Shown: positions 1,694 to 53,138 of the stretch, in pieces | Numbering within the stretch: the stretch's first letter is position 1 | How the letters are laid out: every line of letters starts with the position of its first letter | NCBI GenBank assembly: GCA_964016885.1 | Contig: OZ024761.1 | Location: 8,494,001-8,558,000, forward strand | Direction: 5' to 3' | DNA: 64,000 nucleotides | DNA from: Eledone cirrhosa | Taxonomy: Eukaryota | Notes under the pieces: model-generated | Told to the model about the DNA's origin: nothing | Database searches by the model: none | What the model saw: only the letters and a program-made list of their open reading frames with translations | Position numbers and translations under genes: made by a program

Positions 1694-2727
1694 GTAGGAG
1701 GTGAGTTTTATTGTAGTACAATAAAGCAATGCAGATATCGGATAAGAAGCACTCTACAGTTTGTGGGACTGGAGTATGCATAATATAAGATCAATATATA
1801 CATATATACATTTTTGACATTTTGAGTATTCATCCGCAATCATTATTATTTTTTCTCTCTATCATAAATCTTTTTAATCTCAATTTCATCCTTAATTTAT
1901 TATTATTTTTTTCTCCCCATCAACGAACTCATTATTAATACATATGAATTCAATATACAAACTTTAACTTCACATTATTTTTCTCAAATCCTTCTACACA
2001 TAAACTTTTTCTCTTTGCTAATTTTAAAATTCCTACATTTCTTCTTTTGACGTTAGAATATTCACCCACAATTATTATTTTTTTCTCTCTATCTTCATAC
2101 ATAATTTCCCTTCGTTAATTTTCAAATTCCTTTAATTTATACATTATCTTCCAACGGTTCCCAACCTCTCTATATTAAAACATTATATCTTTTTCTCAGT
2201 TATAAAAACTATCTCTTTCTCTCTATCACCCATCTCTCCCTTTCCACCTTCACTCTCATCTCCTCCCCTTTTTTTCATCCTTTCCAACCCCCCCCCCCTC
2301 CCTAAATATAATATATTTTTTCCTCGCACATATCCTCCCTTCGTTAATTTTCAAAATTTTTAATTTATACAGTATCTTCCAACGGTTTTCAACACCTCTA
2401 TATAAAATATATCTCCTCTCAGTTATAAAAACTATCTCTTTCTCTCTATCACCCATCTCTCCCTCTCATCTCCTTCCCTTTTCATCCTTTTCTCTCCCCC
2501 CCTCTCTAAATAAAATATTTTTCCCAATATCACACATCAATCTAAAACCACTTTTCATATGTTGATTTAAAACTGCACTATCAACAAGTGTTTTTTTAGC
2601 CTTCATATCATGTTCTCCTGTTTTATCTGATGAAAACACAAATATTATTGTTTGATGATATTTGTTTTTGAAATGCGCATAATAAAATATATTGAACTCC
2701 TTTAACCATCTTTTGATCTTATATTAT
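1694..2727 (+). mobile_element. Penelope-like element remnant (pseudo-LTR with hammerhead and an inverted 5' piece)
   Basis: Hammerhead motif at 2621-2687. 1781-1793 is the reverse complement of 2713-2725. The reverse complement of 1694-1793 resembles the sequence downstream of the hammerheads at 45151 and 53073 (tactcca...gagtgct). Internal imperfect duplication at about 2060-2260 vs 2310-2500. Family assignment is inference. Confidence 0.6.
2621..2687 (+). ncRNA. Type I hammerhead ribozyme motif (family A)
   Basis: Reads ttttat-CTGATGA-[stem II aaacacaaatattat...atgatatttgttttt]-GAAA-tgcgca (palindromic stem III)-TA-ataaaa. Predicted cleavage after 2681 (AUA). Confidence 0.8.
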
Positions 2728-4628
2728 ATATACATATATATATATATACATATATATACATATATATATATACATATATATACATATATATATATATACA
2801 TATATATATATATATATACATATATACATATATATACATATACATATACATATATATACATATACATACATACATATACATATATATACATATACATATA
2901 TATACATACATATATATACATACATACATATATATATACATATATATATATACACATATATACATATATATACATATACATATATATATATATACATATA
3001 TACATATATATACATATATACATATACATATATATACATATACATATATATACATATATATACATATACATATATATACATATATATACATATACATACA
3101 TATATATATATATATACATATATATACATATATACATATATATACATATATATATATATACATATATATATATATACACATATATATATATATACACATA
3201 TATATATATACATATATATACATATATATATATATACATATATATACATACATATATATATATACTCTTGCCTCAAGTGGGAAAACCCCCGTCCAAACCC
3301 ATGCAAGCGTGGAACACGGACGCTAAACCTGATGATGATGATGATGATATATACACATATATATATATACACATATATATATATACACATATACATATAC
3401 ATATATATACATATACATATACATATACATATACATATATATATATATATATATATATATACACATATACATACATATATATATATATACATATACATAC
3501 ATATATATATATACATATACATACATATATATATATACATATACATACATATATATATATACATATATATACATATATATACATATATATATATATACAT
3601 ATATATACATATATATACATATACATATATATACATATATATACATATACATATATATACATATATATACATATATATATATATATACATATATATATAT
3701 ATATATATACATATATATATATATATACATATATATATATATATACATATATATATATACATATATATATATACATATAAATATATACATATACATATAT
3801 ATACATACATATACACATATATATACATATATATATATACACATATATATACATGTAGATATATACATATATATATATACACATATACATACATATACAT
3901 ATATATATACATATACATACATATATATACATATATATGTATATATATATATATATATATATATATATACATATATATATATATATATACATATATATAT
4001 ATATATATACATATATATAAGTATATATACATATATATATATACATATATATATATATATATACATATATATATATATGTATATATATATATATACATAT
4101 ATATAAGTATATATACATATATATATATACATATATATATATACATATATATATATATGTATATATATATATATACATATATATAAGTATATATACATAT
4201 ATATATATACATATATATATATATATATACATATATATATATATGTATATATATATATATACATATATATAAGTATATATACATATATATATATATATAC
4301 ATATATATAAGTATATATACATATATATATATACATATATATAAGTATATATACATATATATATATACATATATATATATATATATACATATATATATAT
4401 ATACATATATATATATATATATATATATATATATACATATATATAAGTATATATACATATATATATATACATATATATAAGTATATATACATATATATAT
4501 ATACATATATATAAGTATATATACATATATATATATATATATATATATATATATATACATATATATAAGTATATATACATATATATATACATATATATAT
4601 ATATATATATATATATATATATATATAT
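2728..4628. repeat. TA/TACA microsatellite interrupted by a short RTE 3' tail (3264-3347)
   Basis: Simple repeat. The insert tcttgcctcaagtggg...(gat)n matches RTE tails elsewhere in the window. Confidence 0.95.
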
Positions 4629-6677
4629 GTAGATGAAGCAGTCAAGGCCAAGAGACAGGCATGGAAAGAATGGAAGAACGGGGGGAGCAGGGTACATTAC
4701 ATAGAGACCAAGAGGGAAGCTAGGCGACAAGTATACTTAGCTAGGAGGGAAGCAGAGGATAGAAAATTCAAGCATGTTTTACAACGTGAGGACCAGAAAC
4801 AGGAGGTATTCAAGATTGCGAGGCAGTGTGTCAGAGATAGTTGTGATGTCATTGGAGAGAAGTGTATCCGGAATGATAAAGGTGAGCTTGCCCTCACAAG
4901 TGCTGAGAAGAAAGATGCATGGAAGAGTCATTATGATAGATTACTAAATGAGGAGAATGCATGGGAAGAAGAGACCCTACCCCACGTAGACCCTATAGAG
5001 GGACCAGCAGTACAAGTCAGCGGCAGCGTAGTAAGTAAGGCAATCAGAGATATGAAGATAGGGAAGGCAACCGGTCCATCGGGTATAGCTGCCGAGATGC
5101 TGAAGGCATCTGGGTCTGTAGGTCACACTATAACCACACGTATCGTTAACCAGGTAATACTAGAGGGGGCCATACCAAAAGATTGGTGCAGTAGCATCAT
5201 TGTCAACTGCTACAAAGGTAAAGGCGATGCACTAGATAGAGGAAACTATAGAGGTATAAAGTTGATGGACCAGGTCATGAAAGTAACAGAAAGAGTTATA
5301 GCACAGCTGATTAGGGACCGGGTGAATATAGACGAGATGCAATTTGGGTTTGTTCCAGGGAAAGGCACCACTGATGCGCTCTTCCTTGTGAGGCAATTAC
5401 AGGAAAAGTACCTAGCTAAAAGTAAGCCACTCTACTTGGCATTTGTCGACCTTGAGAAAGCCTTTGACAGAGTTCCACGTGCAGTAATCTGGTGGGCTCT
5501 TAGAAAACTAGGAGTAGATGAATGGCTTGTGAAAGCGGTACAAGCCATGTATAGGGGAGCAGTCAGCAAAGTTAGGATTGGCAATGAGTATAGCGAGGAA
5601 TTTAGCGTACAGGTTGGGGTCCACCAGGGCTCTGTTCTTAGCCCTCTCCTGTTCATCATAGTCCTGCAGGCAATAACGGAGGAGTTTAAGACCGGATGCC
5701 CATGGGAACTCCTGTATGCTGATGACCTCGCACTCATAGCTGAATCTATGGTAGAACTAGAGAATAAATTCCAAACCTGGAAGCAGGGACTAGAGAGAAA
5801 GGGCCTCAAAGTCAACATGACAAAGACTAAGGTCCTTATAAGTAGACGAGAAAACAGAACCCAGATCCCCTCAGGGAAATGGCCTTGCTCAGTATGTAGG
5901 AAAGGTGTAGGTAGGAACTCCATTCTTTGCCCCAAATGCAAACAATGGGTACACAAGAGATGTAGCGGGATCTCAGGAAGCTTAATTAAGAATGTAGGAT
6001 TCACATGCAGCAGCTGTGCTGAAACAGCAAGCAAACAGCCACAGGAAACAAGTACCACCAATCTCTGGGAGGGCCCTGTAGAAACAGTAGATAGCTTCTG
6101 CTACCTAGGTGACCGAATTAGCAACGGAGGTGGGTGCTCAGAAAGTACAATAACTAGGGTAAGAACGGGATGGAAGAAGTTTAGGGAACTACTACCACTG
6201 CTAGCTGCAAAAGGCTTCTCCCTCAGAATGAAAGGCAGACTGTATGATGCGTGTATCCGAACAGCGATGTTGCATGGTAGTGAGACCTGGGCGCTGAAGG
6301 TGGAAGACTTACGTAGATTAGAGAGAAACGAAGCCTGCATGCTCCGATGGATGTGTAACAGTAATATACGTGAACGACAAAGCATAAATGAATTGAGAGA
6401 GAGACTGAGCATAAGAGGAATCAAATGCTGCGTGCAGGAGAGGCGGTTACGCTGGTATGGGCATGTGATGCGTATGAAGGATGACAGCTGCATAAAAAGG
6501 TGCAGAGCACTAGAAGTTGATGGAAACCGCGGAGTGGGGAGACCCAAGATGACTTGGGATGAGGTGATAAAAGCCGACCTTACCCAACTACACCTCTCAA
6601 AGTCAATGACACACGACCGTGACTTCTGGCGTCACGCAGTAATACAGGGTACCCGACCTCCCATGGGTACATGCTGA
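4629..6677 (+). CDS. Non-LTR reverse transcriptase (RTE-like) with a PHD-like Cys/His insert; the N-terminal endonuclease is missing
   Basis: Motifs [59 protein letters not shown]. The frame stays open upstream of the listed ATG (5052) back to 4629 ([12 protein letters not shown]...). Confidence 0.93.
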
Positions 6678-6983
6678 AGCATATAAACAATATGCCCCCC
6701 CCCCCCCACCGCAAGGTGGTCGTGGAGGTGCCACGGCAAAAAAGCACCCAGCCCACACTGTAAAGTGGACGTGTAGGCGCCACGAAAAAGCACCCAGCAC
6801 TCACTGTAAATGAGGTTGGTGTTAGGAAGGGCATCCAGCTGTAGAAATCAAGCCAGATCAGTTCCTGTATGAGCAAGGCATGGTCAGCCGACCAGACACT
6901 GCCCACAACAGGACAACCCGTCTAACCCATGCTAGCGTGGAAGAACGGACGTAAAACGGTGATGATGATGATGATGATGATGA
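4629..6983 (+). mobile_element. 5'-truncated RTE-clade LINE with 3'UTR and (GAT)n tail
   Basis: Open frame 4629-6677, 3'UTR with about 48-bp repeats, and a gatgat tail. Flanked by (TA)n on both sides. Confidence 0.92.
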
Positions 6984-6987
6984 TATA

Positions 6988-52578: not shown

Positions 52579-52657
52579 TTTCATGAATATATATATATTT
52601 CATGAATTTATATATATTTCATGAATATATATATATATTTCATGTATATATATATAT

Positions 52658-52999
52658 ATCATCATCATCATTTCATTTTACGTCCACTTTTCCCTGCTTG
52701 CAAGGGTGGGACGGGGACTGATTCTGGCTTGATTTCTACAGCTGGATGCCCTTCCTAACACAAACCTCATTTACAGTGAGTGCTGGGTGCTTTTTTGCCG
52801 TGGCACCTCCACGACACTTTGCAGTGGAATGATAGGGACCCCTGCCCCTATCATCTCATTTCTACAGCTCTGAGTAAACTGGAGCAATGTGAAATAAAGT
52901 GTCTTGCTCAAGGAAACAACACATCACCCGGTCTGAGAATTGAACTCACAACCTTTCGATTGCAAGGCCAATGGTCTAACCACTAAGCCATGTGCCTCC
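52658..52999 (-). mobile_element. tRNA-derived SINE family 1
   Basis: Reverse complement of the family. Confidence 0.9.
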
Positions 53000-53072
53000 A
53001 TAGAGACTCCAACGGTGATGGTTGCATTTTTCAGGGTATGTCAATATTTATTTATAAAACTAATCTATATTA

Positions 53073-53138
53073 TATTTTATCTGATGAAAGCGCACCATAA
53101 TCTGCCTTGGTGGCCCTTCAAATATATATAATGAAATA
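53073..53138 (+). ncRNA. Family A hammerhead motif with G12>C change (probably inactive)
   Basis: Reads tattttat-CTGATGA-aagcgcacca...tggtggccctt-CAAA-tatata-TA-atgaaata. Confidence 0.65.

Follow-up and report, generated by a model that had tools for sequence, protein, structure and literature searches.

Type I hammerhead ribozymes of metazoan Penelope-like elements (PLEs) are described as lying in both terminal repeats (pLTRs), mostly as single copies from truncated elements, with opposite-strand pairs 100-700 bp apart, a palindromic helix III and a dimer model of cleavage (Cervera and de la Pena 2014, PMC4209133; Lunse et al. 2017 as cited in PMC6765202). Hydra-clade elements with hammerheads and (TA)n targeting, one of them from Octopus (Hydra-1_Obim of Octopus bimaculoides), are already published; the account of this clade gives a GIY-YIG endonuclease at the C terminus, DKT, a CxCx5C linker, CxxC and CxH around E and N, (TA)n targets and a type I hammerhead with palindromic helix III near the 3′ end (Craig et al. 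2021, PMC8557442). For the Poseidon element of the green anole, two internal reverse transcriptase (RT) starts defining a tail and AT-rich targets are reported (Frangieh et al. 2024, PMC11167929). Non-LTR (long terminal repeat) retrozymes are described as AT-rich units of ~200-300 bp with a type I hammerhead and kinship to PLE repeats (Cervera and de la Pena 2020, PMC7229834; Li et al. 2026, bioRxiv 10.64898/2026.07.22.740005). All these features recur in the elements studied here, which were analysed from a 64,000-nt stretch (the window) of contig OZ024761.1 of Eledone cirrhosa, an octopod with a genome of 3.0 Gb. The six hammerhead motifs of the window are real, well supported and derived from a new Hydra-clade PLE family; the pairing of hammerheads with PLEs is itself already known. 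In our reading, to which we give a probability of about 0.75, they are type I hammerheads in terminal repeats of Hydra-clade copies with (TA)n as insertion site; cleavage is predicted for dimers only, and uncut linear RNA is the likely template of the copies.

All six motifs of the original prediction were found at the positions and on the strands given there, and are named here by position: 2621 (+), 9746 (-), 20786 (+), 45151 (-), 51136 (+) and 53073 (+). A complete CUGAUGA...GAAA core, an 8-nt palindrome and an AUA triplet are present in the first four, which hold the type I core (CUGANGA, GAAA, U16.1, H17). This core is broken in the other two: 51136 is eroded and has lost 3 nt of the CUGAUGA box, and 53073 carries G12C, a change confined to this copy among 27 motifs compared. 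In the standard hammerhead numbering, a change at G12 is expected to cause loss of activity. Under the same numbering, the cuts proposed after 2681 and 20837 are correct. A hammerhead descriptor gave 4 matches in the window, as against a mean of 0.005 and a maximum of 1 in 200 block dinucleotide shuffles. With a covariance model built from 22 relatives, all outside the window (R1), exactly six motifs were recovered at 57-80 bits, the next match being at 21 bits. The proposed check by Rfam or a descriptor was thus positive for the descriptor, while the Rfam hammerhead models gave no match in the window at the gathering threshold. The several subfamilies proposed earlier do exist, but the six motifs represent five of them because 2621 and 9746 are near-identical.

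For the analysis of the fold, 139 distinct copies were gathered from the window and from genomic loci, and 22 subfamily variants were hand-picked for covariation. The conservation of the core and of helix I is partly circular, because the core and a portion of helix I were set by the selection pattern; no constraint was placed on helices II and III. The variants have the type I architecture of three helices with helix I open, and helices II and III are backed by covariation. As the original prediction expected, pairs covary: 9 of 19 change on both sides, with 47 such cells against 15 in shuffles (0/500). When the pairing partners were slid, the paired fraction fell from 97% to 34-54%. In a tree-based test, same-branch co-changes of partners numbered 8, compared with 1.0 with permuted partners, and the three pairs of highest mutual information all belong to helix II. 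One covariation measure, the number of further pair types among the 22 variants, showed no excess over shuffles. The structure is maintained through compensatory change between subfamilies. The fourth position of helix II is unpaired in 22/22 variants (C-C in 15), a feature not found described in the literature searched. A C-C mismatch at this position was also seen in 6/6 distinct forms of other hammerhead families with a different helix I (L070, L040, L186, L163, L031, L037).

The centre pair of the 8-nt helix III palindrome is complementary in 21 of the 22 variants (UA 9, UG 7, CG 5), and can be formed only between two molecules, not in a hairpin. Closure of helix III inside a single motif is predicted to cost ~3 kcal/mol, and a double-hammerhead fold is predicted to lie 12-20 kcal/mol below two monomer hammerhead folds. 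The need for a dimer proposed earlier is therefore upheld as a prediction from fold energies and the palindrome: the active fold is predicted to require a dimer, and cleavage would occur in that form. The description of these motifs as minimal PLE hammerheads did not hold. Compared with the metazoan PLE hammerheads in the cited accounts, helix III is an 8-nt palindrome and not absent, the extra nucleotide after A9 (9/10.1) is missing, and the closing pair of helix II is G-C (G10.1-C11.1) in just 4/22 variants (A-U in 12, G-U in 4). The motif is likewise unlike the 26 Hydra rows listed by Craig et al. 2021 in its A/U helix I, its helix II of 20-36 nt, its unpaired fourth position and the lack of the extra nucleotide.

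The Penelope-like origin proposed for the motifs is supported. They sit in the terminal repeats of Penelope-like copies, and an endonuclease remnant is joined to the 20786 motif. This remnant (19825-20114, +) is a frameshifted C-terminal GIY-YIG endonuclease with CxxC and CxH motifs, 58% identical in alignment to the protein of locus L066; a tblastn search matched the remnant with E 4e-17. It is real, as the original prediction held, but does not directly adjoin the hammerhead; it ends 682 nt before the 20786 core. The 3′ untranslated region (UTR) and terminal repeat lie between (20115-20890, +), with a TA run at the end, and the alignment from endonuclease to hammerhead is unbroken in three further loci (L022, L023, L026). 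A genome search with the remnant gave 150 scored matches, and 20 regions were examined. At L067, direct repeats of 690 bp, 98% identical and each with one 2621-type hammerhead, flank a frame of 775 aa with one frameshift near its start; the unit is 3.9 kb. At L066 an 818-aa open frame contains YRDD and the endonuclease motifs, its RT and C-terminal GIY-YIG domains being called by motif and by match by eye to published Hydra proteins. Full elements are thus arranged as repeat, open reading frame (ORF) and repeat, with the hammerhead once per repeat. The 2621 and 9746 copies of the window are 89-95% identical to the L067 repeat, and both carry an inverted tail arm at the 5′ end. At L095 a related endonuclease is linked to the 53073 subfamily.

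The protein carries most of the Hydra marks. DKT replaces DKG (SDKTNNLY in L066 and L067), the CxCx5C linker is present in 6/6 proteins that reach it, CxxC, E, N and CxH are invariant in 7/7, and CCHH is absent, a single Cys, not two, being found within the GIY-YIG core. Long RT stretches of Hydra-1_Obim also match the Eledone element by eye. These features support a Hydra-clade carrier, as judged from sequence. Neptune, Nematis and Naiad were ruled out as carriers by domain order and motifs. An identity as non-LTR retrozymes was also rejected: the retrozymes are described as head-to-tail tandem arrays, whereas no such hammerhead array exists at the six sites, and the Eledone copies occur singly or head-to-head and align collinearly with a coding element. 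The terminal repeats are clear in the Eledone element, and none is noted for the Octopus element in the text of Craig et al. 2021. The element family has no description in the literature searched, though supplements, Lunse 2017, or Repbase or Dfam entries could hold one.

The abundance of the motif was estimated with R1 in a genome sample of 59 stretches of 10 kb (590 kb) taken at round coordinates. Counting matches above 50 bits, 19 were obtained (5 belonging to the training set; 8 weaker ones excluded), that is 1 per 31 kb or roughly 10^5 per genome, a figure whose error is wide owing to paired copies and over-sampled small contigs. The density in the window, 1 per 11 kb, is about threefold higher, and the earlier figure of one motif per 10 kb is local only. 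Targeting of (TA)n was confirmed: a TA run lies within 163 nt of the cut site in 19/19 sampled copies, as against 26% of random positions, and begins 23-57 nt past the cut site in 14 and 137-163 nt past it in 5. The core is intact in 16/19 sampled copies. The proposal that the element seeds self-cleaving RNAs was overstated, as 2 of the 6 window cores are broken, the four intact copies are spaced at least 7 kb apart, and the sole close same-strand pair consists of the two broken copies, 51136 and 53073. As each copy of the window stands alone and activity is predicted to depend on a dimer, these copies are probably inert remnants of insertion and not self-cleaving RNAs at work.

Copies of the element end ~50 or ~140 nt past the cut site, and these two classes of 3′ end define a tail of ~85 nt. 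In tailed copies, a bulged hairpin of the form ACTC-CAR-loop-YTG-2 nt-GAGT-GC (37 distinct forms) lies 50-64 nt after the cut, immediately beyond the first 3′ end. When hairpins were selected in the 590-kb sample on the outer sequence alone, all three inner positions paired with a 2-nt bulge in 44/79 matches, compared with 2.1 in shuffles; these copies are not independent, but include several families with different inner stems. With other bulge lengths inner pairing was found in just 1-8 of the 79. A hammerhead core lies within 150 nt upstream of 19/69 hairpins. A hairpin of this shape with a G-C outer pair can be recognised by eye in the published consensus sequences of Hydra-2_Amil, Hydra-1_Ajap and Hydra-2_Ajap, and partly in that of Hydra-1_Crog, and so is also seen in coral and sea-cucumber elements; it is not evident by eye in the Hydra-1_Obim or Hydra-1_Amil consensus. 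The hairpin is a candidate binding site of the element protein. It is not described in the literature searched, where the words hairpin and stem-loop are absent from the main text of Craig et al. 2021; supplements, Lunse 2017, or Repbase or Dfam entries could hold it. The tail differs from that reported for Poseidon, an element of another clade, in being ~85 nt and not 30-40 nt long, in lying before the ORF and in having a conserved bulged hairpin.

The 5′ ends of the copies bear on the RNA template. Of 30 near-full copies, 18 continue upstream past the cut site, 11 end downstream of it and 1 begins at the site itself. The idea that full-length copies start at the cut site was rejected, the single case being L066, which had prompted the idea. 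Inverted arms were found in 12 of the 30, 9 ending at +135 to +138 and 2 at +52/53. Short copies of 180-290 nt begin 69-87 nt upstream of the core. For counts of 5′ ends, queries were restricted to the hammerhead region, and 30 loci obtained with a query that spanned an inverted junction were omitted because they are biased to palindromic copies. In the 2621 subfamily, 10/29 scored copies have their 5′ end at -69 to -71 (p about 3e-11 against a uniform spread). The corresponding figures are 11/20 at -78 to -92 for the 53073 subfamily (in three of these the end was read by eye across TA runs) and 9/27 scored copies at -71 to -79 for the 20786 subfamily. In the 45151 subfamily, 13/18 copies stop at a similar motif and none shares sequence past about -90 (by eye). 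Contigs from four sequencing runs of unspecified type, aligned to the repeat, showed a fall in summed depth near -69 and TA-joined loose ends at both 3′ ends; this signal was given no weight since contig depth is not copy number. A look through sequencing runs listed no RNA data set with the element, a result without bearing on its expression. Short and long copies of the 2621 subfamily interleave: 6 changes of the label are required on the tree, and 0% of 200 bootstrap trees recover it as a single clade. This indicates a recurring end in that subfamily, not one short master copy. The piling of 5′ ends upstream of the cut site and not at it suggests that linear uncut RNA is the template, which fits the uncut RNA substrate reported in vitro by Frangieh et al. 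2024. Run-off of the RT at a transcription start within the repeat is the simplest reading of the pile; in Drosophila Penelope a transcription start has been mapped inside the repeat (Schostak 2008). The pile was not described in the literature searched, with the same provision for supplements, Lunse 2017, and Repbase or Dfam entries.

Two further observations concern these ends. AGGT(C/T) recurs ~27-31 nt downstream of the piled 5′ ends in three subfamilies (window 20748-20753; L087; L019), and resembles a downstream promoter element. Head-to-head palindromic units of ~480 bp are present in the 45151 subfamily (L002, L009, L010, L020, L210-L239), with arms ending at +51 and +139; they look like miniature inverted-repeat transposable elements, and their junctions are variable.

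A possible course of copying can be proposed from these features. Transcription would start at the site of the piled 5′ ends, 69-87 nt upstream of the core. The RT-endonuclease would bind the bulged tail hairpin, nick (TA)n and prime at two internal sites. Priming in the upstream repeat followed by run-off at the RNA 5′ end would give the copies of 180-290 nt, priming in the downstream repeat would give longer truncated copies, and head-to-head pairs would arise from two primings. In a full transcript, both hammerheads would pair through the 8-nt palindrome and be cut slowly or with the help of protein, so that cleavage may serve processing or dose control and not be a required step of integration.

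Several results weigh against the reading of uncut, dimer-dependent Hydra-clade copies. The double-hammerhead fold is predicted to lie 1-10 kcal/mol above the best two-strand fold and, in 2/4 motifs, also above the minimum folds of two monomers. Neither the 45151 nor the 51136 subfamily was linked to an ORF at the loci examined. The RWK site reads RWI (RRLRWIA at the position of RRMRWKA in Hydra-1_Obim), which together with a longer 3′ UTR marks a family different from the Octopus element, and the 3.9-kb unit of L067 exceeds the <3 kb typical of Hydra. A Pfam scan of three element proteins gave no family, and the Hydra placement rests on motifs and comparison by eye. The tree of short and long copies is weak, with 1 of 18 inner branches well supported, and the 5′ pile could also reflect RT stalling or TA microhomology.

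Four other explanations were weighed against copying from uncut linear RNA. The model of Cervera and de la Pena 2014 proposes cleavage followed by ligation: two hammerheads excise a unit RNA, ligation closes it into a circle, and copying goes on for more than one turn, the hammerhead being restored at the junction. A circular template accounts for read-through of the cut site, for partial tandems and for tails behind the downstream repeat (L071-L073). A circle, however, has no fixed end upstream of the cut, yet the short copies of three subfamilies pile there, and hammerhead mutants of the anole element are reported to have still inserted in vitro (Frangieh 2024, PMC11167929). This route is unlikely for the family in general, although it may apply to long tandem copies. 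A slightly smaller chance is given to the short copies being a non-autonomous family, SINE-like (short interspersed nuclear element) or solo-retrozyme-like, with fixed ends of its own and use of the Hydra enzyme. The shared stop, the absence of shared sequence beyond it and the lack of a linked ORF in the 45151 subfamily agree with this, and for that subfamily alone it may be right. Against it, the short copies of the 2621 subfamily share diagnostic sites with different long copies and are scattered over the tree as described above, and there are no tandem arrays at the six window sites.

It could also be argued, from the proportion of intact cores, the frequent head-to-head pairs and the possibility of dimerisation in trans, that the dispersed copies function as self-cleaving RNAs and cut host transcripts about once per 10 kb. 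This is improbable: helix III closes poorly within one motif, the copies of head-to-head pairs lie on opposite strands, damage to cores is scattered and limited to individual copies, as neutral decay predicts, and single minimal hammerheads are reported not to have cleaved (Cervera 2014, PMC4209133). A chance origin in AT-rich repeats might be suspected from the A+T content of the window (73%) and from a helix I made up of A/U only, but the shuffle controls, the covariation and the fixed position in the element have already refuted it, and its likelihood is negligible. Copying from uncut linear RNA is retained as the preferred reading.

The copies of the window show the element in several states. 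The 2621 copy is 5′-truncated (1811-2733, +) and comprises 3′ UTR and terminal repeat with a TA array at its end; the 3′ end of L067 is matched by 2320-2743 at 89% identity, with weaker similarity back to 1811. Its hammerhead (2619-2690, +; R1 57.3 bits, also matched by the descriptor) has an intact core with the predicted cut after 2681. The inverted tail arm at its 5′ end (1692-1790, -) is 97% identical to the tail of the full element L067 and contains the bulged hairpin at 1749-1775. The 9746 copy is short (9698-9878, -), as judged by alignment to L067, and its 5′ end at -69 from the core is the commonest of its subfamily in the 5′-end counts. Its hammerhead (9743-9814, -; descriptor; R1 58.5 bits) is intact with a predicted cut between 9752 and 9751, and its inverted arm (9876-9962, +; 98% identity to the L067 tail) has a hairpin stem with one base changed. 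The 20786 hammerhead (20786-20846, +; descriptor; R1 79.6 bits) is intact and predicted to be cut after 20837. The 45151 copy is short and tailed (45020-45285, -, the 5′ limit approximate), with an intact hammerhead at 45150-45211 (R1 76 bits), a predicted cut between 45159 and 45158, and a tail hairpin at 45078-45100. The eroded 51136 copy (51136-51245, +; R1 64.5 bits) is truncated at helix I and predicted to be inactive; L177 is an intact relative. The 53073 copy (53003-53269, +) is short and tailed, with its 5′ end at -78 by the end counts, a hammerhead at 53073-53139 that carries G12C and is predicted to be inactive, and a tail hairpin at 53188-53210.

Related motifs were also seen in the window. 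A seventh hammerhead-like motif at 53925-53990 (-), in an element at ~53880-54530, has a complete core with helix I unpaired. It belongs to another young Hydra-type family whose copies are 98-99% alike, with the core in 15/15 loci and an endonuclease ~900 nt upstream in L107. At 48659-48772 (-) a hammerhead of a different family is truncated in helix I and followed by a tail hairpin of GCTC/GAGC form; intact relatives are present in L180. A short repeat between TA runs (47676-47795, +) has a tail hairpin at 47722-47747 and no hammerhead core within 150 nt, and its hairpin family is the commonest in the genome sample. Among other repeats, a ~340-bp repeat with a tRNA-like head occurs at 44520-44860, 22642-22989, 28608-28942, 42302-42636 and 52650-53002 (Rfam tRNA 35.6 bits at 44787-44852) and is probably a SINE. 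Remnants of non-LTR retrotransposon RT, related and 64-70% alike, lie at 4569-6677, 20912-22220 and 51421-52187, and TA-based arrays at 7425-18167 (~10.7 kb) and 54525-63608 (~9.1 kb).

As PLE hammerheads are known, the finding as first posed is ordinary, and it is the copy ends and the tail hairpin that lend it interest. The role of PLE hammerheads was called unclear by Craig et al. 2021 (PMC8557442) and is unsettled: the circular-template model coexists with insertion without cleavage in vitro, where the hammerhead of anole Poseidon was reported to be dispensable for insertion and assisted by protein, uncut RNA being the principal substrate (Frangieh et al. 2024, PMC11167929). We tentatively propose, at somewhat less than even odds, that the Eledone copies record how PLEs are copied. 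The RT would start at two sites around a Hydra-wide bulged hairpin (molluscs, corals, sea cucumbers), read through the uncut hammerhead and run off a fixed 5′ end 70-85 nt upstream. The hammerhead, with its fourth helix II position unpaired, would be switched off in the templates and would not be the maker of circular templates, and ~10^5 copies would map these steps in vivo. The family supplies a hairpin that is a candidate for protein binding and a hammerhead variant that Rfam did not detect, both of them small RNAs that are simple to assay, and the 5′ and 3′ ends of its young, abundant copies can test the two models from sequence.

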